Shown here: positions 2,963-18,232 of the stretch, piece after piece | Numbering within the stretch: position 1 is the first letter of the stretch | How the letters are laid out: each line of letters starts with the position of its first letter | Source of the DNA: a virus | Lineage: Duplodnaviria; Heunggongvirae; Uroviricota; Caudoviricetes | Direction: 5' to 3' (one strand) | Length of the DNA: 18,232 bases | IMG/VR virus record: IMGVR_UViG_2698536647_000012 | The notes under the pieces: model-generated | Databases searched by the model: none | Told to the model about the DNA's origin: nothing | The model's input: only the letters and a program-made list of their open reading frames with translations | Position numbers and translations under genes: made by a program

Positions 2963-3206
2963 GCTGTTCATTGCTGCTATACACTTTTTTGCTCTCAACG
3001 TAAGCGGTAGCCCATTCTGTTGGGTTGGTGCAGTTGCTTTTAGGAAATGCTATTTACCCCTTAAATGTCGGCTGAAAGAGCTAAAATCCATGCAAAAAAT
3101 TTACGCAATTTTGTGTATTATTGTGCAGTAAGTAATGAGCTATTTTCTGCGCAAAAAATGGATGGTAAATTTGTCCGGGTCAGGAAAAATTTTATGGGCG
3201 CTAAAC

Positions 3207-3737
3207 ATGAAAAAAGATTCGTATCCTTATTTGATTTGCATGACAGTTTCAGGGCTGATCTTTATTTTCCTTTTCTTCTGGTGGCGGGCAGATATCTACA
3301 GGGTCACGTTTCTTAATCAGAGTATATCCCACTATTACATTCTGTTTAGCATGGGAATAGCTTTTCTGTTATCTCTGTTTTGGGTTAAGAAGGGGATAGT
3401 AAAACAAAGAGGCTGGAAGAGTCTGTCAGCATACCTTAAGGTTTATGCAGGGATGTGCATATTTGCTGGATTTTTTCTGATTATACCCCTTACGACACTA
3501 ACTTATTTTTTGCCTGGAGAGACATCGTCTTATGTTGCACCGTATCGGTATACTTCCGGTAGTTCAAAAAGTTGTTCTGGAGCTGAGGTGGATGACCCCG
3601 ATCTACATGAGAATATTCGCATTTGCTATCCGTATGGCAATTATGAGTACGATAATATTATCTATGTTGAAAAGAAAATTAATATATTAGGTGCGGTAGT
3701 GACATATGCACAGACCGCGCGTGATGATACTGAATGA
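3207..3737 (+). CDS. Hypothetical integral membrane protein (about 4 predicted TM helices plus a C-terminal soluble Cys/Tyr-rich domain); accessory cargo gene
   Basis: Longest ORF in a visibly AT-rich block, on the strand opposite the pL operon. Strongly hydrophobic segments (LICMTVSGLIFIFLFFWW, ILFSMGIAFLLSLFWV, YAGMCIFAGFFLIIPLTTL). ATG at 3207 is in frame with the track ORF 3135..3737. No family recognised. Confidence 0.6.
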   Translation: MKKDSYPYLICMTVSGLIFIFLFFWWRADIYRVTFLNQSISHYYILFSMGIAFLLSLFWVKKGIVKQRGWKSLSAYLKVYAGMCIFAGFFLIIPLTTLTYFLPGETSSYVAPYRYTSGSSKSCSGAEVDDPDLHENIRICYPYGNYEYDNIIYVEKKINILGAVVTYAQTARDDTE

Positions 3738-7429: not shown

Positions 7430-7810
7430 TCAGTCAGCCCAACCTGATTTCGAGTTTATTTGGGTTTCTGACATTGTGTATTTCTTAATCGTGTCATCGT
7501 TAAAAAGAATAGTAAGTTCTTTTTTCGTACCGTTCGTTCCATTATGGAATAATCCATAGAATGGAATAAAAGTGGTGCCATTAACTTTTACTTTTGCAAA
7601 GGCGTACTTCCAGATCTCGTTTCCACTGTCAGTATATGAAACAGCATCAGGAGAACCAAAGTAAGATTTAACCTCATTCTTGGTTGTTTTACCTTCCTGA
7701 AGTTTAGACTGGACACTAATTTCAGTTTCATTTTTGAGTTGCTGGTTGCCTGAAGAAGCACACCCAGCCAATACAGATGCCATCATGGCAGCGATTAGGA
7801 TTTTTCTCAT
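7430..7810 (-). CDS. Lipoprotein (signal peptide plus lipobox LAGC), accessory gene in the rex position downstream of the repressor gene
   Basis: 126-aa ORF, N-terminus MRKILIAAMMASVLAGCASS. Same strand as and downstream of the repressor gene, so it would be expressed in the lysogen. Mature part loosely resembles small BamE/SmpA-like lipoproteins; not verified. Confidence 0.7.
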   Translation of the reverse strand: MRKILIAAMMASVLAGCASSGNQQLKNETEISVQSKLQEGKTTKNEVKSYFGSPDAVSYTDSGNEIWKYAFAKVKVNGTTFIPFYGLFHNGTNGTKKELTILFNDDTIKKYTMSETQINSKSGWAD

Positions 7811-8039
7811 TTTATGTTTCCATTCATTATAACCAGAAACATCTTAACATAATGATTCGAAATAAAAACCGCTACGAGATAGGGGGACATTTTGCTGACA
7901 GTAGCAACAAATCTCAGCTAACAACGAGAATATTTACTGAAATATGCAAACAGATTTGGCGTTCTTATAGAGAATTTAGTGCAATATCTAATCCGAGTGG
8001 TATAAATCTTAACCTTCGCTCCCTTAAGTCGTAGATAAA

Positions 8040-8729
8040 TTAACCATGCTTCCTGTACGTCTGCGGCATGCTTCCAATGACCTTACCGAATATGAACACC
8101 CGGTTCATCTCGTCTTTCTCGATCGGGTCCCACGGCGAGTAGCTCTTGTTATCAGAGATAACCAGCAGCTTATCCTTCATCATTTGAAGACGTTTTACAT
8201 GGGCAGTGTCGTCGTACAGAAACGCATAGATGCCATCACCGTCGAAAGATTTAACAGTGATATCAACGAACAGCAGGTCACCTGGTTCGATCGTCCCTGA
8301 CATGCTGTCACCTCGCACGTTAATGATGCGGATATTTTCCGCCTTCCTGCCATCGAACATGTGACGAGCATCGTCAAACGAGTACTCAACCGAGCGTAGA
8401 ACTTCTACAAACTCACGGTTGATTACACCTGGCCCGGCACTGACTTCTATATCAAGAACGTCAATTTTGAAGTATTTGGAATGGCTGACAGTTGATTGTA
8501 TTGGTTGCACTGTACTGTCTGACATATTTCCAACGCCAGAAGATAACCATTCTGCGCGTACACCCAAAGCGTTCGCGATCTCCACGATTTTAGTTGTTTG
8601 GTTAGCTTTCCCTGTTTCGATTTTCTGAATAGCAGCCTGGCTAACCCCGACCAAATCCCCAAGCGCCTTTTGTGTAAGGCCTCGCGCTAATCTGGCTTCT
8701 TTAAGTCTTTCTGAGAGTGTTGTTTTCAT
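8040..8729 (-). CDS. CI-type prophage repressor (N-terminal XRE HTH plus C-terminal S24 LexA-like autopeptidase)
   Basis: 229-aa ORF. HTH segment (LTQKALGDLVGVSQAAIQKIETGK). S24 catalytic motif GDSM (VRGDSMSGTIEPGDLLFVD) and a downstream Lys (AHVKRL). Divergent from the cro-like gene across an operator/promoter region. Confidence 0.9.
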   Translation of the reverse strand: MKTTLSERLKEARLARGLTQKALGDLVGVSQAAIQKIETGKANQTTKIVEIANALGVRAEWLSSGVGNMSDSTVQPIQSTVSHSKYFKIDVLDIEVSAGPGVINREFVEVLRSVEYSFDDARHMFDGRKAENIRIINVRGDSMSGTIEPGDLLFVDITVKSFDGDGIYAFLYDDTAHVKRLQMMKDKLLVISDNKSYSPWDPIEKDEMNRVFIFGKVIGSMPQTYRKHG

Positions 8730-8770
8730 AGATCAAATGTACAACCAAGGTTTTATTTCATCAAACGAAA

Positions 8771-8806
8771 ATGGTTGTTGACTAAAAACAACCATAGTTT
8801 TAATCT
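8771..8806 (+). promoter_or_regulatory. OR/pR: palindromic operator ATGGTTGTTGACTAAAAACAACCAT overlapping -35 TTGACT, 17-bp spacer, -10 TAATCT
   Basis: Perfect 25-bp palindrome with GTTGTT/AACAAC half-sites covering a near-consensus sigma70 promoter aimed at the cro-like gene (start 8834, SD GGAGG). Confidence 0.65.
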
Positions 8807-8833
8807 TGATTCGGATTAACCACGGAGGTTGTT

Positions 8834-9064
8834 ATGAACCCAGCAATCAAAACAGCGATCAATATCGTTGGTTCACAAAAGAAACTAGGCGATGCCTGCG
8901 AAGTTTCACAGCAGGCCGTCTATAAGTGGCTTCACAACAAAGCAAAGGTATCCCCTGAACATGTCGGCAGCATTGTTACGGCTACTGGTGGAGTTGTGAA
9001 GGCATACCAGATTCGCCCGGATCTTCCGAAGTTGTTTCCACACACCGAAAAGAACGCAGCTTAA
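8834..9064 (+). CDS. Cro-like HTH regulator of the YdaS family
   Basis: 76-aa ORF (MNPAIKTAINIVGSQKKLGDACEVSQQAVYKWL...), first gene of the rightward operon with a strong SD; resembles Rac-prophage YdaS-type Cro proteins. Confidence 0.75.
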   Translation: MNPAIKTAINIVGSQKKLGDACEVSQQAVYKWLHNKAKVSPEHVGSIVTATGGVVKAYQIRPDLPKLFPHTEKNAA

Positions 9065-9076
9065 ATTTCCATTTCA

Positions 9077-9088
9077 CGCTCTTTAACA
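9077..9088 (+). promoter_or_regulatory. boxA-like element (CGCTCTTTAACA) downstream of cro, candidate nutR
   Basis: 12-mer matching the lambdoid boxA consensus (CGCTCTT(T)A) in the cro to cII-position intergenic region. No clean boxB hairpin was found next to it. Confidence 0.4.
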
Positions 9089-9133
9089 ATAAGCAATCAA
9101 CTTAACAGTCAATTCAAACTAAAGGAGTCAATT

Positions 9134-9673
9134 ATGCAACCACTTACATACCAACAGACTAGCGGATTTATTCCGACTGCGGTGATAAATCGTTCTCAAA
9201 CAAAACAAGCTCCAGGCCACGAAAAAATCCGTGATGCCGTCCGCGCCTGGTCGGCTGTAGATAATCAGGATGTCGTTGCCGCACTCATTGTGAATGAGTA
9301 TCGGGAGCAGGGCGACGGCACCATCGATTTCCCTGATGATGTCAGCCGTGCACGCCAGAAGCTGTTCCGCTTCCTCGATAACAAATTCGATTCTGAAAAA
9401 TACCGAAATAACGTGCGTGAACTGACCCCGGCAATTCTGGCGGTACTACCGCTGGAATATCGCGGTTACCTGGTTGAGCAGGATAGCTTCATGGTTAGGT
9501 TGGCTGAAATGGAAAAGGAACTCAGTGAGGCAAAACAGGCTGTCATTCTCAACGCACCACGCCACCAGAAACTGAAGGAAATTAGTGAAGGTATTGTGTC
9601 GATGTTTCGTGTGGACCCAGATCTGGCTGGTCCATTGATGGCGATGGTTACTACCATGCTGGGGGCGATATGA
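9134..9673 (+). CDS. YdaT-like protein in the cII position
   Basis: 179-aa ORF with good SD (AAAGGAG). Central segment (ELTPAILAVLPLEYRGYL) resembles Rac-prophage YdaT, which follows the YdaS-type Cro. Confidence 0.6.
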   Translation: MQPLTYQQTSGFIPTAVINRSQTKQAPGHEKIRDAVRAWSAVDNQDVVAALIVNEYREQGDGTIDFPDDVSRARQKLFRFLDNKFDSEKYRNNVRELTPAILAVLPLEYRGYLVEQDSFMVRLAEMEKELSEAKQAVILNAPRHQKLKEISEGIVSMFRVDPDLAGPLMAMVTTMLGAI

Positions 9674-9759
9674 CAGGTTCAGAAATGGCGAAAGCCGGTC
9701 TGCTGGAACAGAACCGACTTTCAGGTGCAAATCGTAACACACTCATTGCGGGAGGAATT

Positions 9760-10689
9760 ATGGCAAACACTGCTGAGATATTCAATTTTCCAGTGCCGGA
9801 TGCGGCACAAAAGGAGCCGCGCGTGGCAGATCTCGATGATGGTTATACGCGCATTGCAAATGAGTTGCTGGAAGCTGTGATGCTGGCCGGATTAACACAG
9901 CACCAGCTTCTGGTCTTCCTGGCTGTCATGCGCAAAACATATGGCTTTAATAAAAAACTGGATTGGGTGAGCAACGAGCAACTGTCCGGATTGACCGGGA
10001 TATTACCGCACAAGTGTTCTGCTGCAAAAAGTGTTCTGGTAAAGCGTGGGATTTTGATTCAGAGCGGGCGGAATATCGGTATTAATAATGTGGTCAGTGA
10101 ATGGTCAACATTACCCGAATCAGGTAAGAAAAATAAAGTTTACCTGAAAGAGGTAAATTTACCTGAATCAGGTAAGAAAAGTTTACCCAAATCAGGTAAA
10201 GGCGTTTACCCGAATCAGGTAAACACAAAAGACAAACTAACAAAAGACAATATAAAACCTTTTTCGTCCGAGAATTCTGGCGAATCCTCTGACCAACCAG
10301 AAAACGATCTTCCTGTGGTGAAACCAGATGCTGCAATTCAGAGCGGCAGCAAGTGGGGGACAGCAGAAGACCTGACCGCCGCAGAGTGGATGTTTGACAT
10401 GGTGAAGACCATCGCACCATCAGCCAGAAAACCGAATTTTGCAGGGTGGGCTAACGATATCCGCCTGATGCGTGAACGTGACGGACGTAACCACCGCGAC
10501 ATGTGCGTGCTTTTCCGCTGGGCATGCCAGGACAACTTCTGGTCCGGTAACGTGCTAAGTCCGGCCAAACTCCGCGACAAGTGGACCCAACTCGAAATCA
10601 ACCGTAACAAGCAACAGGCAGGCATGATAGCCAGCAAACCAAAACTCGACCTGACAAACACTGACTGGATTTACGGGGTGGATTTATGA
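9760..10689 (+). CDS. O: Replication initiator O (lambda O family; contains the origin iterons)
   Basis: N-terminal region (MANTAEIFNF...VADLDDGYTRIANELLEA...RKTYGFNK...NISEW) is clearly homologous to lambda O. The track ORF starts at 9670, but the ATG at 9760 has a GGAGG SD and aligns with the lambda O start. Iterons and an AT-rich tract lie inside the gene, as for ori-lambda. Confidence 0.85.
   Translation: MANTAEIFNFPVPDAAQKEPRVADLDDGYTRIANELLEAVMLAGLTQHQLLVFLAVMRKTYGFNKKLDWVSNEQLSGLTGILPHKCSAAKSVLVKRGILIQSGRNIGINNVVSEWSTLPESGKKNKVYLKEVNLPESGKKSLPKSGKGVYPNQVNTKDKLTKDNIKPFSSENSGESSDQPENDLPVVKPDAAIQSGSKWGTAEDLTAAEWMFDMVKTIAPSARKPNFAGWANDIRLMRERDGRNHRDMCVLFRWACQDNFWSGNVLSPAKLRDKWTQLEINRNKQQAGMIASKPKLDLTNTDWIYGVDL
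10111..10222. repeat. Origin iterons: about five copies of the palindromic 17-mer TTACC(C/T)(G/A)AATCAGGTAA at roughly 23-24 bp spacing, followed by an AT-rich tract (to about 10260)
   Basis: Copies read at about 10111, 10140 (degenerate), 10159, 10183 and 10206, inside the O coding region, which also encodes a repeated LPESGKK peptide. Followed by aaacacaaaagacaaactaacaaaagacaatataaaacc. Confidence 0.8.
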
Positions 10690-11387
10690 AAAACATCGCC
10701 GCACAGATGGTTAACTTTGACCGTGAGCAGATGCGTCGGATCGCCAACAACATGCCGGAACAGTACGACGAAAAGCCGCAGGTACAGCAGGTAGCGCAGA
10801 TCATCAACGGTGTGTTCAGCCAGTTACTGGCAACTTTCCCGGCGAGCCTGGCTAACCGTGACCAGAATGAACTGAACGAAATCCGCCGCCAGTGGGTTCT
10901 GGCTTTCCGGGAAAACGGGATCACCACAATGGAACAGGTTAACGCAGGAATGCGCGTAGCCCGTCGGCAGAATCGACCATTCCTGCCATCACCCGGGCAG
11001 TTTGTTGCCTGGTGCCGGGAAGAAGCATCCGTTACCGCCGGGCTGCCAAACGCCAGCGAGCTGGTTGATATGGTTTACGAGTATTGCCGGAAACGTGGCC
11101 TGTATCCGGATGCAGAGTCTTATCCGTGGAAATCGAACGCGCATTACTGGTTGGTTACCAACTTGTACCAGAACATGCGGGCCAATGCGCTGACTGACGC
11201 GGAATTACGGCGCAAGGCTGCCGATGAACTGACCTGTATGACAGCGCGAATTAACCGTGGTGAGACGATACCTGAACCAGTAAAACAACTTCCTGTTATG
11301 GGCGGTAGACCTCTAAATCGTGCACAGGCTCTGGCGAAGATCGCAGAAATTAAAGCTAAGTTCGGACTGAAAGGAGCAAGTGTATGA
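10686..11387 (+). CDS. P: Replication protein P (DnaB helicase loader)
   Basis: 233-aa ORF recognised as lambda P along its full length; start overlaps the O stop. Confidence 0.95.
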   Translation: MKNIAAQMVNFDREQMRRIANNMPEQYDEKPQVQQVAQIINGVFSQLLATFPASLANRDQNELNEIRRQWVLAFRENGITTMEQVNAGMRVARRQNRPFLPSPGQFVAWCREEASVTAGLPNASELVDMVYEYCRKRGLYPDAESYPWKSNAHYWLVTNLYQNMRANALTDAELRRKAADELTCMTARINRGETIPEPVKQLPVMGGRPLNRAQALAKIAEIKAKFGLKGASV

Positions 11388-11563
11388 CGGGCAAAGAGGC
11401 AATTATTCATTACCTGGGGACGCATAAGAGCTTCTGTGCACAGGACGTTGCCGCGGTAACAGGCGCAACCGTAACCAGCATAAATCAGGCTGCGGCTAAA
11501 ATGGCGCGGGCAGGAATCTTAGTCATTGATGGTAAGGTCTGGCGAACGGTATGTTATTTTTAA
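11384..11563 (+). CDS. ren: Ren, C-terminally truncated (59 aa; homology lost after ...GKVWRTV)
   Basis: ATG overlaps the P stop (ATGA), SD AAGGAG. N-terminal 57 residues match lambda Ren as recalled; the ORF then stops 2 codons later where the AT-rich island begins. Confidence 0.65.
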   Translation: MTGKEAIIHYLGTHKSFCAQDVAAVTGATVTSINQAAAKMARAGILVIDGKVWRTVCYF

Positions 11564-11887
11564 TAATAGAAAACGTATGGGAGCTTAAATCCTTGTATAT
11601 GAAATTTATTACCGTCGCCCTACGGTTAAATCATGAAAATTTATATAAAAATGAATGTTCGTAATTGCATATTTAATATGATGACCTCGTGTTGACTATT
11701 ATAAATTATAGGTGTGTAAGATGTTTAAAGTAGATGAGGTGATTAATATCGATTCCTTACTATATATTCAAGCCCTGTGATTAAGCGATGTACTGAATGC
11801 TTGTAGGAAGGTTGTATATTATATAGTGTTTAAAATTATGGTGCTACAATTGTTTATGGCGTTTTGCAATCATGCGAAAACCTATGA

Positions 11888-11916
11888 TTGACAATTGTTA
11901 CTGAGTCTTGTAAGAA
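11888..11916 (+). promoter_or_regulatory. Candidate sigma70 promoter for the NACHT NTPase gene (-35 TTGACA, 17-bp spacer, -10 TAAGAA)
   Basis: Consensus -35 hexamer with 17-bp spacing to an A/T-rich -10-like hexamer in the AT-rich leader. Confidence 0.35.
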
Positions 11917-11951
11917 TGCACCACGTATTGGTTAATGAATGTGGTGAAAAA

Positions 11952-13847
11952 ATGGATGAGTTTCTTGCGACTATTATTAATAGCACAGTAGGAAAAGCTG
12001 CGGAAAAAATAACAGAAGTATTGCTCTCTAAACCTTGGGCTAGGGACCTAGATGAAGGCAAGGTTATACTCGAACAATTAAATGATCCCCTCGGAAGAGA
12101 AAATTATTTAAGAAAGCATGTGCTACCATCTCTGAAAATGAGAACTTTGCACAACGCTGATTATGATATTTTTTTAGATGATATTTATTATCCGTTAACT
12201 GTTGAGGTGGCATCTAATAAAGACAAGGTCGTTATAAAAGATGGGGTCACTTTACCATTTCATGGTATTGTAAATATAGTCGGTATAGCGGGGCAAGGGA
12301 AAAGTACTATTTTACGCAAGTTGTTTAGCGAGGAAATAAAAAAATCAGAACGGATGCCTTTTTTTATTGAATTAAGAAGGGTGAAGAATGCAAATATTAT
12401 TGCTTATCTGGCAGACATTCTTAATTCATTTGGTGTGGGGTGTTCAGAGGATAGCTTGAAAATATTACTGCAATCCCAAAGAGTCGTTTTAATGTTGGAT
12501 GGATTTGATGAGGTTAAACATGAAGAGCGAACTATGATGATGAATGAAATAAAAAACATTCATTATCATTTTAACACACCAATTATCGCAACAACGAGAC
12601 CAAATACAGATATATGTTATACTACTGATGTGTATAATATTTTTATAGATAAGCTAAATATTTCTGATAAGATTTGTATTCTTCATTCTTTATCGAAAAA
12701 TGACAGATTCTCAAGTAGTGATGCCTCGTTTAAAGTCTTGGCGGATTTACTATGTGATAAAGAAGAACTTGAGGGAACTATTTGCAATCCAATTTTAGTT
12801 ACTCTTTTGTATTATTGTTATCCTTATATGAATGATATTCCAAATAATATAATAGAGTTTTATCGAAGCCTCTTTGACACCTTATATGCAAGGCATGATA
12901 AAATAAAAGTATATACGCGCGAGAAAAAATCAAACATTATTGGTGAAAAAGCTAAATTGTGTTTTTCAGCTATTTGCTATAACGCACTGATTGAGGAGAA
13001 ATTTGAGTTTTGGGGAGAGGAGTTGCTTAGATATGCTGAAGATGCTATTGAAACAGAAGGTTATCTTAAAGAAGATGCATCAAACTTTATAGATGATCTT
13101 ATTGAGATAACTTGCCTTATCCAACCTGAGGGAAATAATAGGTATGTTTTTCTGCATAAATCAGTGCAAGAATTTTATGCTGCTTTTGCGGTAGCAAATT
13201 TACCGATTGAGTATAAAAAAGATATATACGAAAATCTTATGGTGGCTATTAAATGCTCTGAACAGTTAGATAACTTCATGTTGTTTTTACATTCACTAGA
13301 TTCCAAAGCATTTATAGATGAAATCACAATAAAAGCTTCTCGTGATATGGGGGTTGTAGATGTCGCAAACATGACGAGAGAGAGAGTTGAGAATGTTTTT
13401 GACTCGGCACTAAGTAGAGTATTTATCAAAGGCAACTCGACATCGAATGACTCAGTGATTTCGCTTCATTACGACTTTGTATTAGGTTCGCTCTTAGGTA
13501 TTGATATTCTACCTATAATGTCTGGAAAAGAACGAGTTCCTATGACAGAAATTGATTTGATTTTTGACGACCTTTTTTCATGCACGATGGATAAGGGTGA
13601 GTTAAACTTATACAAATTTGAAGTTAAAAAACAAAAAAATAATATTGATACTGATGTTCAGACTGATGATTATTTATTTCCCTTGGTGGATTATCTTAAG
13701 GTCAGGGGGGTTTATGGTTTGATGCTGGATACTTACCATCAGACAATTAAGGATTTTTATGATAGATATTATCAACCAGCTTATGATTCGAATCTTCGAA
13801 GAACACTAGCAATGGGAAGAAATTTCAAGTTAAAGAAAAATAATTAA
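11952..13847 (+). CDS. NACHT-type STAND NTPase (bacterial NLR-like protein), candidate anti-phage defence protein
   Basis: Walker A GIAGQGKST; Walker B of the NACHT type (VVLMLDGFDEV); sensor-1-like IIATTRP; NPxL-type segment (CNPILVTLL); winged-helix signature YVFLHKSVQEFYAAF. Start placed at the second in-frame ATG (MDEFLAT...); the track ORF begins at a TTG at 11895. Sits in a visibly AT-rich island. Confidence 0.85.
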   Translation: MDEFLATIINSTVGKAAEKITEVLLSKPWARDLDEGKVILEQLNDPLGRENYLRKHVLPSLKMRTLHNADYDIFLDDIYYPLTVEVASNKDKVVIKDGVTLPFHGIVNIVGIAGQGKSTILRKLFSEEIKKSERMPFFIELRRVKNANIIAYLADILNSFGVGCSEDSLKILLQSQRVVLMLDGFDEVKHEERTMMMNEIKNIHYHFNTPIIATTRPNTDICYTTDVYNIFIDKLNISDKICILHSLSKNDRFSSSDASFKVLADLLCDKEELEGTICNPILVTLLYYCYPYMNDIPNNIIEFYRSLFDTLYARHDKIKVYTREKKSNIIGEKAKLCFSAICYNALIEEKFEFWGEELLRYAEDAIETEGYLKEDASNFIDDLIEITCLIQPEGNNRYVFLHKSVQEFYAAFAVANLPIEYKKDIYENLMVAIKCSEQLDNFMLFLHSLDSKAFIDEITIKASRDMGVVDVANMTRERVENVFDSALSRVFIKGNSTSNDSVISLHYDFVLGSLLGIDILPIMSGKERVPMTEIDLIFDDLFSCTMDKGELNLYKFEVKKQKNNIDTDVQTDDYLFPLVDYLKVRGVYGLMLDTYHQTIKDFYDRYYQPAYDSNLRRTLAMGRNFKLKKNN

Positions 13848-13931
13848 ATTGATAGTTACAAAGAGACAGCTAATTATAAGTTTCTAACAGTTGAAAAATT
13901 AATTGTAAGTAGGCAATATTAATAAGCCGGA

Positions 13932-14029
13932 GCCTGAACAACTCCGGTGACTTCTGCGCTAAACGGGGACGTTTATGCGCACATACAATCCAACCTATCT
14001 TCTCCATTCACAGATGCAGAAATGCACCT
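13932..14029. repeat. Copy A of a ~100-bp bipartite repeat (conserved ends GCCTGAACA.C.C.GGTGACTTCTGCGC and CACAGATGCAGAAATGCACCT, variable middle)
   Basis: Both conserved blocks recur about 1.48 kb downstream with the same spacing (about 77-78 bp). Confidence 0.6.
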
Positions 14030-14281
14030 ACGATTTTTTACATTCGGTGTTTTACTTCGACAGCCAGAATTGGGAGTCTCTATTCGTCTGGCGGCTAAAG
14101 GTGATATGGAAATCGTTATGTTTTGGCCTGAGGTAGTTGTAACTGTTGTAGCAGCTATGGCTGTGATCATCATGGTGTCCATTTACTGGGGTTGACGACA
14201 TGATTTATCTGGGGATATATTCTGTGCGTTGCCGCAAAATCGGCACACGGGATTGGCGTCCCGGAATACTACTCAACGCAT

Positions 14282-14303
14282 ACCGCGTTAAGCGGTTTTT
14301 TTA
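14282..14303 (+). terminator. Candidate intrinsic terminator (ACCGC-gttaa-GCGGT then T7)
   Basis: 5-bp stem and 5-nt loop followed by TTTTTTT on the plus strand, upstream of the Roi-like gene. Confidence 0.4.
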
Positions 14304-14458
14304 TGCGCTAAGCACGGCTACGCCCAAATTATGGTGGGCTGTGTGAGGGCTTCTTCGGGAGCGCCGGATTTGAGTAGCCGGTTACGCCAACCTTGCACAG
14401 TTCACCACCAGTCGATTGGCGTCGTTGGTGGTGATGGTTAACCTGATGAGGTGAAACT

Positions 14459-15073
14459 ATGACTACTCAATTAGCATTCCACAAAACGACGTTTACCCCA
14501 ATTTGCCACAATAACAGAATTTGGCTTACTGCCACTGAAGTTGGTTTAGCTCTGGAATATGCGGACGATAAAGCAGTTCAGCGCATTTACTCTCGTCACT
14601 CAGATGAATTTACAGATATGATGACAAGGGTGGTCAAAGTGACCACCCCTCGTGGAATGCAGGACTCTCGAGTATTTAGCCTTCGCGGAGCCCATTTGAT
14701 CGCCATGTTTGCACGAACTCCTGTAGCCAAAGAGTTCCGCCGCTGGGTTCTGGATATTCTCGATCGAGAAGTTCAACAATCCCCGATCACAAAACAATTC
14801 ACTGATAACGAACTTTGCACACTTGCTTGGTTATGGCGAGCTGGGGATGCGATGTTAACCGCCTGCCAGAACGTTACTCCTCTTCTTCAGGTTGCGGAGC
14901 ATCGTGAAGCTGGTCGCTTCACTTCCATCGAGCAAGAATATCCCCAGATACTCACCAGAGCGCGAGCAATCCTCGCCAGAGAAACGGCACATGTAAAATT
15001 CCAGCCGTGGCAGGATGATAAGTGGAGTCGAGTATTGCCACATTTGCGTCAGAATGTTATTAAACAACGTTAG
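14459..15073 (+). CDS. Bro-N domain protein (Roi / antirepressor-like DNA-binding protein)
   Basis: 204-aa ORF with Bro-N-type N-terminal features (RIWLTATEVGLALEY..., ...FRRWVLDIL). SD GAGGTGA upstream. Position between the replication and nin genes, as for HK022 roi. Confidence 0.65.
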   Translation: MTTQLAFHKTTFTPICHNNRIWLTATEVGLALEYADDKAVQRIYSRHSDEFTDMMTRVVKVTTPRGMQDSRVFSLRGAHLIAMFARTPVAKEFRRWVLDILDREVQQSPITKQFTDNELCTLAWLWRAGDAMLTACQNVTPLLQVAEHREAGRFTSIEQEYPQILTRARAILARETAHVKFQPWQDDKWSRVLPHLRQNVIKQR

Positions 15074-15132
15074 CTACTGTGTCTCTCCAATTTAGCTAAC
15101 ATATGGATTCATAAGAAAAAGGAGCTTTTGCC

Positions 15133-15384
15133 ATGATGTCCTTCACCAAATGTAAATTAATGCACAGCCATAAAACTAGCGTAAATGCAGCGCTCTTGGA
15201 CGATACGAAATTAGTTGTAGAGAGGGATCTCCATTTTCTTCGTGAGTTATACATATCAAGCCCAGAAGAATTTGTCGGACATTGGGTTTATGCAAATGAG
15301 CCAATATTTCATGAACATCCACTGTCTGTTGGCCTTTCTGGTATTGTCTATCACAAGGTTATTGATGAAATTGAAAAATCATAA
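15133..15384 (+). CDS. Hypothetical protein (83 aa)
   Basis: ATG with SD AAGGAG about 8 nt upstream; same strand and context as the Roi-like gene. No family recognised. Confidence 0.5.
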   Translation: MMSFTKCKLMHSHKTSVNAALLDDTKLVVERDLHFLRELYISSPEEFVGHWVYANEPIFHEHPLSVGLSGIVYHKVIDEIEKS

Positions 15385-15412
15385 TCAATAAGCAATAATA
15401 CCGTCACCGTTG

Positions 15413-15511
15413 GCCTGAACACCCTGCGGTGACTTCTGCGCATATGATTGGGAAATTATATGCGACCACAAGTTAAACTCCTCGCCTTGCCACAGATGCA
15501 GAAATGCACCT
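15413..15511. repeat. Copy B of the ~100-bp bipartite repeat
   Basis: GCCTGAACACCCTGCGGTGACTTCTGCGC ... CACAGATGCAGAAATGCACCT; matches copy A at both ends with a divergent middle. Confidence 0.6.
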
Positions 15512-15554
15512 GCGATATTTTGCATCCAGCGTTTGACCTCTGCGGAGGTGAAGC

Positions 15555-16010
15555 GTGAACCTCCCACAAGACGGCATCAAATTACATCGCGGTAACTTCA
15601 CCGCTATCGGTCGGCAGATCCAGCCTTATCTGGAGGACGGTAAATGCTTTCGCATGGTGCTTAAACCGTGGCGCGAGAGACGCAGTCTTTCCCAGAATGC
15701 ACTCAGCCACATGTGGTACAGCGAAATCAGTGAATACCTCATCAGCAGGGGTAAAACGTTCGCCACTCCAGCTTGGGTAAAAGATGCTCTCAAACACACT
15801 TATCTCGGTTATGAAACCAAAGAACTGGTTGATGTCGTAACCGGTGAAATCACCACCATTCAGTCATTACGTCATACCTCCAATCTTGATACCGGAGAGA
15901 TGTATGTCTTCCTGTGTAAGGTTGAAGCCTGGGCGATGAATATTGGCTGCCACCTGACTATTCCGCAGAGCTGCGAGTTCCAGCTGCTCCGCGACAAGCA
16001 GGAGGCGTAA
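15555..16010 (+). CDS. ybcN: NinB/Orf-family recombination protein (YbcN-like)
   Basis: 151-aa ORF with GTG start and SD GGAGGTG. Contains the NinB-like RSLSQN motif. Gene order ybcN-ninE-ybcO-rusA-ylcG-Q matches the DLP12-type nin region. Confidence 0.65.
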
Positions 16011-16180
16011 TGGCTACACCGCTTATTCGTGTCATGAACGGACACATCTACAGAGTATCAAATCGTCGTAAGCGTAAGCCTGAGCTGAAGCCATCCGAAA
16101 TACCAACACTGCTCGGATATACCGCTAGCCTGGTTGATAAAAAATGGTTGCGACTGGCAGCAAGGAGGAATCATGGCTGA
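16010..16180 (+). CDS. ninE: NinE-like small protein (56 aa)
   Basis: Hand-translated [59 protein letters not shown] overlaps the ybcN stop. C-terminal W-L-R-rich segment resembles lambda NinE. Confidence 0.6.
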   Translation: MATPLIRVMNGHIYRVSNRRKRKPELKPSEIPTLLGYTASLVDKKWLRLAARRNHG

Positions 16181-16463
16181 TTTGAGAAAAGCAGCGCGTG
16201 GTCGGGAATGCCAGGTAAGAATCCCTGGCGTATGTAATGGCAATTCTGAGACGTCTGTACTGGCACATATCCGGCTGGCTGGATTGTGCGGTACCGGTAT
16301 CAAACCGCCAGACCTGATTGCCACCATTGCATGTTCTGCCTGCCACGACGAAATCGACCGCCGCACACATTTTGTCGATGCTGCATATGCAAAAGAATGC
16401 GCGCTGGAAGGTATGGCGAGAACACAGGTTATCTGGCTGAAAGAGGGGGTTATTAAGGCGTGA
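16173..16463 (+). CDS. ybcO: YbcO-like putative nuclease (DUF1364, Cys-rich)
   Basis: ATG at 16173 preceded by AGGAGG; product [24 protein letters not shown]... recognised as the DLP12 YbcO family. The track ORF 16134..16463 starts at an upstream TTG. Confidence 0.75.
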
Positions 16464-16822
16464 ATACCTACAGCATCACATTACCCTGGCCTCCGAGCAA
16501 TAATCGCTATTACCGCCATAATCGCGGGCGCACGCACATCAGCGCAGAGGGGCAGGCATACCGCGATAACGTCGCCCGAATCATTAAAAACGCAATGCTA
16601 GATATCGGCCTGGCTATGCCTGTGAAAATCCGCATTGAGTGCCACATGCCGGATCGCCGTCGCCGTGACCTGGATAATCTGCAAAAAGCCGCTTTTGACG
16701 CACTCACTAAAGCAGGTTTCTGGCTGGATGATGCTCAGGTCGTTGATTACCGCGTTGTGAAGATGCCTGTTACCAAAGGTGGGAGGCTGGAACTGACCAT
16801 CACCGAAATGGGGAATGAATGA
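16460..16822 (+). CDS. rusA: RusA Holliday-junction resolvase
   Basis: 120-aa ORF recognised as RusA ([25 protein letters not shown]...); GTG start overlapping the ybcO stop. Confidence 0.92.
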
Positions 16823-16959
16823 TGTTTGAGTTTAATATGGCAGAACTTCTTCGCCACCGCTGGGGGCGTCTGCGCTTATATCGTTTCCCCGGTTCTGTTT
16901 TGACCGATTACCGAATACTGAAGAATTACGCCAAAACACTGACAGGAGCAGGAGTATGA
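16819..16959 (+). CDS. ylcG: Small protein YlcG-like (46 aa)
   Basis: Hand-translated [46 protein letters not shown]; start overlaps the rusA stop; same position as ylcG in DLP12. Confidence 0.5.
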
Positions 16960-17044
16960 AGTCAGAGATAACAATCAACTAATACTGTTTTGTTGATTTT
17001 TGCTTGTAATTGGCGTTCTGGTCTGAGTTTTGTGGAGTAAGTTG

Positions 17045-17422
17045 ATGCGTGATATTCAGATGGTTCTTGAGCGTTGGGGAGCGTGGGCGGCTAATAATCA
17101 TGAAGATGTGACCTGGTCGTCCATTGCCGCCGGTTTTAAGGGATTAATTCCTTCAAAGGTAAAATCTCGCCCACAATGTTGTGACGATGACGCGATGATC
17201 ATTTGCGGGTGCATGGCCCGTCTGAAAAAGAACAACAGCGATTTGCATGATTTATTGGTGGACTATTATGTCGGCGGCATGACTTTTATGGCGCTTGCAC
17301 GTAAGCATGGGCGATCTGATTGTTGGGTTGGCAGGATGCTTCAGAAAGCTGAGGGCGTAGTGGAGGGTATGCTGATGGTGTTGGATCTCCGATTGGAGAT
17401 GGATGCTGATTGTTCGAAATAA
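17045..17422 (+). CDS. quuD: Late antiterminator Q (phage 82 / DLP12 QuuD type)
   Basis: Track ORF 17030..17422 begins at a TTG; the ATG giving [22 protein letters not shown]... is the likely start. Sequence recognised as QuuD/Q82-like, followed by a pR'-like promoter and terminator. My hand count of the printed sequence is 1 nt out of register with the track here, so the start is given in the track frame. Confidence 0.85.
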
Positions 17423-17434
17423 TTAAAGGAAAAG

Positions 17435-17463
17435 TTGCTGTCTGATTGTCATTAGTCTAACAT
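17435..17463 (+). promoter_or_regulatory. pR' late promoter candidate (-35 TTGCTG, 17-bp spacer, -10 TAACAT)
   Basis: Promoter-like hexamers immediately downstream of Q with a short leader to the tR' hairpin; the qut site is expected to overlap. Confidence 0.4.
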
Positions 17464-17520
17464 TTTAAATGTTGGAATCGCAACGTAGTTATTATCATAT
17501 AACAGCTTGTTTCCTGATTT

Positions 17521-17549
17521 AGCCAGCCTCCCCAAAGGCTGGTTTTTTT
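17521..17549 (+). terminator. tR'-like intrinsic terminator (CCAGCC-tccccaaa-GGCTGG then T7)
   Basis: 6-bp GC-rich stem followed by TTTTTTT on the plus strand, about 60 nt downstream of the pR' candidate; also lies just past the 3' end of the convergent lipocalin gene. Confidence 0.7.
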
Positions 17550-17577
17550 CTAATAAGTATTATTTCGGGTAGGGATT

Positions 17578-17933
17578 TTATTGTTTAACCCATAATAATT
17601 CATTGACATTGAATCCCAACTTTTGAGCGGTTCGCACATAGTCTGCTTTTACTTTATCTGGAATAGTTGGGGTCCTTGCCAGAATCCATAGGTATTCTCT
17701 GTTCGGACCACTGACAAGAGCATACTTATACTCATCATCCAGTTTGATTACATTATAGCCACCATAGAAGGGGCCAAAAAACGAAACCTTCAATGCTGCA
17801 GTTTTAGTATCTCCAGTAAAGTATGCTTTACCTTCGCTCTCGCTCCATTTATTTTTCGTTGGATCGTATCCACGGTTAAGTACACGAATCCCTCCGTCGT
17901 TCCGTTTTCCATAAGTAGCGCTGACCTGTTCCA
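17578..17933 (-). pseudogene. Blc-like bacterial lipocalin, 5'-truncated by IS3 insertion
   Basis: Translation aligns with the C-terminal two-thirds of E. coli lipocalin Blc (ATYGKRNDGGIRVLNRGYDP...SEGKAYFTGD...ALKVSFFGPFYGGYNVI...YLWILARTPTI). The reading frame runs straight into the IS3 terminal inverted repeat, so the signal peptide and N-terminal strands are missing. Confidence 0.75.
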
Positions 17934-18232
17934 TGATCTTACCCAGCAATAGTGGACACGCGGCTAAGTGAGTAAACTCTCAGTCAGAGGTGACTCACAT
18001 GACAAAAACAGTATCAACCAGTAAAAAACCCCGTAAACAGCATTCGCCTGAATTTCGCAGTGAAGCCCTGAAGCTTGCTGAACGCATCGGTGTTACTGCC
18101 GCAGCCCGTGAACTCAGCCTGTATGAATCACAGCTCTACAACTGGCGCAGTAAACAGCAAAATCAGCAGACGTCTTCTGAACGTGAACTGGAGATGTCTA
18201 CCGAGATTGCACGTCTCAAACGCCAGCTGGCA
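17934..18232 (+). mobile_element. IS3-family insertion sequence, left end (continues beyond the window)
   Basis: Terminal inverted repeat TGATCTTACCCAGCAATAGTGGACAC followed by the orfA start; recognised as E. coli IS3. Confidence 0.9.
17999..18232 (+). CDS. insE: IS3 transposase OrfA (InsE), 5' part, partial at window end
   Basis: ATG at 17999; product MTKTVSTSKKPRKQHSPEFRSEALKLAERIGVTAAARELSLYESQLYNWRSKQQ... recognised as IS3 OrfA; ORF is open to the window end. Confidence 0.9.
   Translation, partial: MTKTVSTSKKPRKQHSPEFRSEALKLAERIGVTAAARELSLYESQLYNWRSKQQNQQTSSERELEMSTEIARLKRQLA

Follow-up and report, generated by a model that had tools for sequence, protein, structure and literature searches.

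In the cryptic prophage DLP12 of E. coli K-12, the PF06530-type Q gene quuD and the lysis cassette essD-rrrD-rzpD flank a slot that holds nmpC, which codes for an outer-membrane protein, is read on the opposite strand and is split by an insertion sequence (nmpC::IS5). The window (the whole 18,232-nt stretch of DNA analysed here) resembles this arrangement, with a homologous backbone (ybcN, ninE, ybcO, rusA, ylcG and Q) followed in the same slot by an opposite-strand gene for an outer-membrane protein that is likewise interrupted. It differs from DLP12 in that the interrupted gene encodes a lipocalin and not a porin, the element is IS3 and not IS5, and relatedness to quuD is lost in the C-terminal part of Q and in the sequence that follows. 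Three isolated phages, IdasGreatGrand (PP925829), 1H12 (NC_049947) and Lambda_ev087, have the same genes in the same order and place. IdasGreatGrand is 99.1% identical to the intact module of locus L001, which served as the reference for the uninterrupted lipocalin gene and its module, and 99.8% identical to the Q-lipocalin part of the window; unlike in the window, the lipocalin gene of these three phages is uninterrupted and without IS3. In the complete genome M23917 (NZ_CP133913) a lipocalin::IS3 insertion is identical to that of the window in insertion point, orientation and duplication of a CCA triplet, but it lies in a Qin-type prophage (with ydfU upstream of Q) and on another lipocalin haplotype, the nearest differences being 20 nt to the left and 17 nt to the right of the IS, and it is probably a separate event. 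The intact prophage lipocalin belongs to the same fold family and has the same lipoprotein layout as the chromosomal Blc of E. coli (PDB 1QWD, 2ACO, 3MBT), to which it is about two-thirds identical over the aligned region (3MBT, 1QWD; E 1.8e-67); unlike chromosomal Blc, it is a prophage-borne paralogue, and the window copy comprises only residues 58-174. The left inverted repeat and orfA start of IS3 (IS3 family, 1,258 bp) are essentially identical in the window, which holds only 299 nt of the element.

Its gene order marks the window as the left part of a lambda-like prophage that sits beside ybhC in the lambda attachment site. It runs from ybhC through the lambda att core (GCTTTTTTATACTAA), a lambda-type int and xis (the ybhC and int segment being 99.9% identical to an E. 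coli genome) to exo, bet, gam, the repressor gene, cro, O, P, the nin region (the five genes from ybcN to ylcG named above) and Q, and the left arm up to Q looks intact. Accessory features of this arm are listed in Table 1. The 650-aa NACHT/NB-ARC ORF lies between the replication genes and an antirepressor-like gene, a position at which relatives have other genes (DUF4041, TagO-like); PADLOC gave no match for this protein, which we regard as a candidate defence gene. The isrK and C4 matches are directly upstream of a Bro-N/P22 antirepressor-type gene, in a layout that resembles Gifsy-1 isrK. The small ORF beside the repressor gene is annotated as BamE-like in a relative.

The Q gene of relatives is annotated as an antiterminator Q family protein, and Q of the window is distantly matched to the solved Q21 protein 6P18 (E 1.9e-8). 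Three candidates were considered in the interval expected to hold the late promoter pR' (Table 1); the consensus promoter scan gave no convincing pR', and candidates 2 and 3 are weaker than candidate 1. The sequence ATATAACAG, which follows candidate 3, is common to the region downstream of DLP12-type quuD, and a comparison with DLP12-type quuD as a means of locating pR' was dropped because homology stops inside Q. No Q-binding element was identified between Q and the cargo. The candidate tR' has a 9-bp stem (17521-17544) and is the sole terminator-like site that the scan found in 16900-18232. Its fold energy (17521-17551) is -26.9 kcal/mol (z = -4.3 against shuffles), the same terminator-like hairpin is present in a Qin-type relative (L002), and the lipocalin stop codon lies 27 nt to its right. 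No Rfam family matches the RNA from Q to the terminator (17423-17551). Should pR' be constitutive, as it is in other lambdoid phages, the lysogen would be expected to make a short, terminated RNA (~45-120 nt) from this interval on the plus strand, and it would parallel lambda 6S RNA or the Stx-phage sRNA (PMC7547250).

Table 1. Features of the window, with positions counted from its first nucleotide
Feature	Position	Strand	Evidence
200-aa ORF in the int-to-exo accessory region	3135-3737	+	no match in Pfam or PADLOC
Small ORF beside the repressor gene	7430-7810	-	weak BamE match (E 1.6e-4, below the Pfam cut-off)
650-aa ORF with NACHT/NB-ARC NTPase domain	11895-13847	+	domain match, E 3e-11
isrK match	14230-14412	+	Rfam, 60.7 bits
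C4 antisense RNA match	14459-15073	+	Rfam, 72.4 bits
Q antiterminator gene, 125 codons from the ATG of RefSeq relatives	17045..17422	+	Pfam Phage_antitermQ, E 2.5e-51
Interval expected to hold pR', three candidates	17394..17498	+	inference
pR' candidate 1, TGGAGA-18-AATAAT	17394-17423	+	only one passing the consensus scan, 9/12
pR' candidate 2, TTGCTG-17-TAACAT	17435-17463	+	read by eye
pR' candidate 3, TTGGAA-15-TATCAT	17472-17498	+	read by eye
Candidate tR', hairpin AGCCAGCC...GGCTGGTT followed by a T run	17521..17551	+	terminator scan, fold
Blc-type lipocalin 3' fragment, codons 58-174 and stop	17578..17933	-	Pfam Lipocalin_2, collinear with L001
CCA target triplet, left copy of the expected 3-bp duplication	17931..17933		flanks in M23917, L032 and L037
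In-frame ATG made at the junction (CA from the gene, T from IS3)	17932..17934	-	sequence
IS3 left end, ended by the contig end	17934..18232	+	99.7% identity to IS3 positions 1-299
Imperfect 39-bp terminal inverted repeat of IS3	17934-17972	+	IS3 match
orfA 5' part, 78 codons	17999-18232	+	Pfam HTH_Tnp_1, E 2.7e-10

In relatives, Q is followed by the lipocalin gene (minus strand), ybgA (YbgA/DUF523-DUF1722), an AraC-family gene, and holin, lysozyme and Rz genes, the essD-rrrD-rz lysis genes coming after the module. In related phages and prophages this slot is filled by a porin gene (annotated OmpC, OmpD or NmpC). The module is AT-rich (29-44% GC versus 50-54% in the nin region), and the lipocalin segment is found in 1,146 of the 5,426 complete E. 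coli genomes; its coverage reaches at least 80% in 1,037 of them, and the intact module occurs in roughly 1,040, or a fifth, of the genomes. That the slot after Q and the terminator-like hairpin is the cargo (moron) slot of lambdoid phages is well supported, the downstream lysis cassette and the alternative cargo being seen in relatives, as the window ends before the downstream side.

The 117-codon fragment in the window represents the 3' two-thirds of a 174-aa Blc-type lipocalin gene. Alignment with L001 gave identity through ...CTGTTCCA (17933) and none past that base, where the intact gene continues with GATCACG and the window with TGATCTTACC; the junction was therefore placed between 17933 and 17934, past codon 57 of the 174-codon gene, and the fragment adjoins the IS3 left inverted repeat there without a gap. 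The minus-strand ORF 17578-17949 matches Pfam Lipocalin_2 at profile positions 24-146 of 146 (E 3.1e-31; the intact allele, E 3.5e-43), and this score, together with 99-100% collinearity with the intact gene, ruled out a chance ORF. At least 10 independent assemblies share this fragment with its junction, so chance does not account for it. The intact protein of 174 aa begins MKLWPVLTGIALSFTLIAC and has a signal peptide, an LIAC lipobox (Cys19) and a GKWYEIAR strand, the latter two within residues 1-57. In the window copy, which starts at residue 58, the signal peptide with its lipobox cysteine and the N-terminal GxW strand are absent; because residues 1-57 are missing, this copy is a pseudogene fragment and not a functional Blc-type member, and the gene is inactivated by IS3, since what is left of it lacks the promoter, the signal peptide, the lipidation cysteine (Cys19) and the first barrel strand. 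Gene callers start a 118-residue protein at the junction ATG because the junction happens to make this codon in frame (Table 1). Neither a promoter nor a good ribosome-binding site was seen upstream of the ATG, there is no reason to think that the product is made or folded, and its export signal would be missing.

The preliminary description had proposed that a minus-strand Blc-like lipocalin ORF runs into an IS3 inverted repeat, that the gene is inactivated by the element, and that it sits in a cargo slot directly after Q and a tR'-like terminator. All of this is borne out by the Lipocalin_2 match and 99.7% identity to IS3, by the cut after codon 57 with loss of the promoter and the N-terminal part, and by the layout (Q ends at 17422, the hairpin follows at 17521-17551, and relatives carry the module or a porin). 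The prophage lipocalin is often a pseudogene elsewhere, too (P0002, P0004, P0008, P0020, P0033, P0035, P0040, P0046), the lesions comprising frameshifts, an IS1 insertion and a further IS3 site (P0040). The lipocalin of P0035 reads into an IS1 end, and another element interrupts the gene at three positions with the shared tail WICPYISRHLLSLNP.

The inverted repeat quoted in the preliminary description (TGATCTTACCCAGCAATAGTGGACAC) corresponds to 17934-17959. The 299 nt of the 1,258-bp IS3 in the window begin with 5'-TG and carry its left inverted repeat; of 39 positions, 28 agree between the two ends of IS3, and the left end is matched about 16,500 times in the complete genomes. Its orfB (DDE transposase) and the programmed -1 frameshift site through which orfB is reached are beyond the contig end and are present at the same site in M23917 and in two contigs from sequencing-run assemblies (L032 and L037). 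The element is oriented as late transcription, and a simple scan of its plus strand, i.e., in the late-transcription direction, found no terminator-like site.

Positions 7578-18232 of the window are base-for-base the last 10,655 nt of a draft contig (CXYJ01000016.1, assembly GCA_001268685.1), and the window end (18232) is the contig end, 299 nt inside the multicopy IS3. The right end of the window reflects an assembly gap caused by the repeat and has no meaning as a biological boundary; because the contig breaks inside a multicopy element, rightward extension is impossible on the window sequence, and nothing about the right arm can be inferred from it. In M23917 the same junction is followed by a full IS3, a repeated CCA at its right end, the first 57 lipocalin codons, ybgA, AraC and the lysis genes, and L032 and L037 span the whole IS3 with the same structure; in all three spanning sequences the IS3 is full (1,258 bp). 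Every right junction that was followed showed the CCA repeat and then the lipocalin 5' part. In each of three samples (GCA_900490215.1, GCA_030717045.1 and ERZ8154741) the two halves were found on different contigs, and a contig of the first of these (L022) continues past the junction with ybgA, AraC, holin, lysozyme, Rz, Bor, HNH, terminase, portal, protease and capsid genes. Longer contigs with the junction continue into lysis genes, and some into terminase or head genes. The predicted product of the 5' fragment, 62 aa long and reading into the IS3 right end (...ERGLVILPT, ...ENRFERGLVILPT), was not itself among the matches of a homology search in which it served as query, but an exact look-up showed that it is on record in ~25 contig blocks and, as two alleles, in dozens of contigs. 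In one piece the junction is present in 1 of 5,426 complete E. coli genomes (M23917), the source genome therefore not being part of this collection, and an exact scan of species-representative genomes with the 36-nt junction found none. The preliminary description had allowed that the lipocalin 5' part might be absent or the IS3 incomplete, and had proposed a search for the other IS3 end and a target-site duplication; in relatives, the 57 codons, the 1,258-bp element, its right end and the duplicated CCA are all present. For the source genome itself a simple insertion is a strong inference from the identical junctions elsewhere.

The explanation that we favour, with a probability of about 0.85, is that a simple IS3 insertion kills an accessory lipocalin gene and does not by itself imply a defect in lysis or late expression. 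After Q, this prophage would have its late promoter region, the first terminator and an AT-rich accessory module, the first gene of which is a paralogue of the outer-membrane lipoprotein Blc on the opposite strand. An IS3 copy would have inserted by ordinary transposition at the CCA past lipocalin codon 57, in the orientation of late transcription, and the rest of IS3, the second CCA, the first 57 codons, ybgA, the AraC-family gene and the lysis cassette would lie on another contig, where simple insertion predicts that the IS3 right end (GTGGGTAGGATCA) is joined to the lipocalin 5' side (CCAGACCACGTTCGAACC). Polymerase modified by Q reads through terminators, and it would read through IS3 as well. 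Since the lesion is in an accessory gene and read-through would be expected, the insertion alone would imply no defect of lysis or late genes, and polarity on the lysis genes is not expected on this analysis. The preliminary description had gone further, suggesting that the right arm is disrupted and the prophage possibly defective for lysis or late functions. The first suggestion is not supported, the window stopping at a contig end and the followed junctions being simple insertions, and the second finds no backing in relatives, whose contigs keep holin, lysozyme, Rz and, in some, terminase, portal and capsid genes, or in the IS3, which is without a predicted terminator. Counting against the favoured explanation, IS3 was found at the lipocalin locus in none of 50,697 phage records, and IS3-adjacent deletions without target duplication occur in the same region of other strains (E4, B27, PSJ-14 and 97.3).

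Insertions of IS3 recur in this region. Between Q and ybgA, complete genomes have at least 9 further IS3 positions, and in viral contigs the lipocalin gene is hit at two more. In the stretch from Q to the lysis genes, more than 15 distinct IS3 sites were noted (L001 6000-10700; equivalents L014-L021, L042-L048 and L057-L111), and some of these copies go with lysis-gene deletions. Chimeric queries consisting of a 934-nt segment and the IS3 left end, which detect one IS3 orientation only, found both together in 26 genomes for the Q-lipocalin segment and in 22 genomes for AraC-essD, and in 1 genome (IS3 in quuD) for the nin segment, which itself occurs in 2,905 genomes. In the orientation that these queries cover, IS3 is thus much rarer beside the nin genes (Fisher p = 9e-14, counted by genomes that are not independent events). 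An orientation-unbiased set of viral contigs comprised 58 IS3 sites, of which 19 could be mapped to reference prophages; 9 of the 19 are in the ~4-kb interval from lipocalin to lysis genes (p = 3e-5, assuming that the interval makes up 4,100/42,000 of prophage length). The viral contigs also have IS3 in ren and at the ybcN end. A possible bias in the orientation of IS3 was dropped, because the chimeric queries detect one orientation only, and a specific targeting of the lipocalin gene by IS3 was softened because IS1 and another element also interrupt it.

These numbers bear on the alternative that the insertion is not neutral, i.e., that IS3 between Q and the lysis genes is kept because it dampens late or lysis expression (grounding) or alters the expression of ybgA or AraC. 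The clustering would agree with it: IS3 accompanies Q-lipocalin in 26 genomes at at least 9 distinct sites and AraC-essD in 22, against 1 of 2,905 for nin, the excess recurs in the viral contigs (9/19), and four IS3 insertions are in or just before Q. The same enrichment, however, would equally result from a target preference combined with tolerance in AT-rich accessory DNA; the genomes are not independent events, the genome-based control sees one IS3 orientation, and viral contigs show IS3 at the ybcN end and in ren. The element, moreover, is in the late-transcription orientation without a predicted terminator, and the lipocalin gene is interrupted by IS1 and another element as well. We consider selection for this insertion unlikely.

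Still less probable, in our view, is that the insertion was followed by an IS3-mediated adjacent deletion or rearrangement that removed the 5' part of the lipocalin gene and perhaps also genes for lysis and morphogenesis. Such events do occur in the Q-to-lysis interval: E4 has a tail gene fragment after IS3, the lysis genes of B27 and PSJ-14 are deleted up to Rz1, and in 97.3 an IS3 without target duplication abuts deleted or foreign DNA. Across the loci examined, 21 full-length IS3 instances are without matching 3-bp flanks, and the partner contig of the source assembly (GCA_001268685.1) was not among the contig matches listed for the 62-aa 5' fragment. Against this, each locus with the same junction that could be followed is a simple insertion with a repeated CCA, the matching 62-aa fragment is found in the ~25 contig blocks mentioned above, and the left arm of the window has intact int, xis, exo, bet, gam, repressor, O, P and nin genes. 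That the junction is an assembly artefact, a chimeric contig end arising from a repeat, is scarcely credible, for although the window stops where its contig does, in a multicopy repeat, a closed genome, two contigs spanning the whole IS and several independent isolate and metagenome assemblies all show the identical junction.

The CCA triplet itself carries IS3 in plus orientation on the haplotype of the window and on the Qin-type haplotype (nearest differences 20 and 17 nt from the IS), and in minus orientation in AB56 and three metagenome contigs (loci considered: window 17931-17934, L002, L021, L010-L012, L032 and L037). Both orientations cannot share one event, and the site was therefore hit independently at least two times, once per orientation; it was probably hit three times, because the same-orientation junction lies on two haplotypes. 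Among 26 unique IS3 sites with a 3-bp duplication (drawn from loci L002-L121), G was found at position -3 in 14/26 and C at position +3 in 18/26, i.e., in 32/52 folded half-sites (30/50 with the CCA site counted once; p about 1e-7). The target preference of IS3 is thus apparently palindromic, with G as the third base ahead of the 3-bp duplication and C as the third base past it, and the site of the window, TGTT[CCA]GACC, fits it. A G/C-flanked preference of IS3 was not described in the literature searched, beyond which the specialised IS literature lies, and no paper on the prophage lipocalin or on the target choice of IS3 was found. A mutation-accumulation study recorded 10 IS3 transpositions among 758 new insertions and did not characterise the target sites of IS3 (PMC5009759). 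It is tentatively suggested, at somewhat below even chances, that the lipocalin CCA is a recurrent IS3 target fitting a previously unremarked palindromic preference and that, together with tolerance or selection, the Q-to-lysis interval may be an IS3 sink that aids grounding.

The IS3-split lipocalin is ordinary prophage decay that has already been annotated, as RefSeq lists the same allele in M23917 as two lipocalin pseudogene pieces on either side of IS3. It adds one more accessory prophage gene lost to an insertion sequence and has little wider biological weight, and the IS3 lesion by itself is no evidence for a defective prophage. The recurrence at one triplet and the apparent target preference are mildly new and, once a proper genome-wide survey has been made, may be of interest for the transposition of the IS3 family and for prophage domestication.
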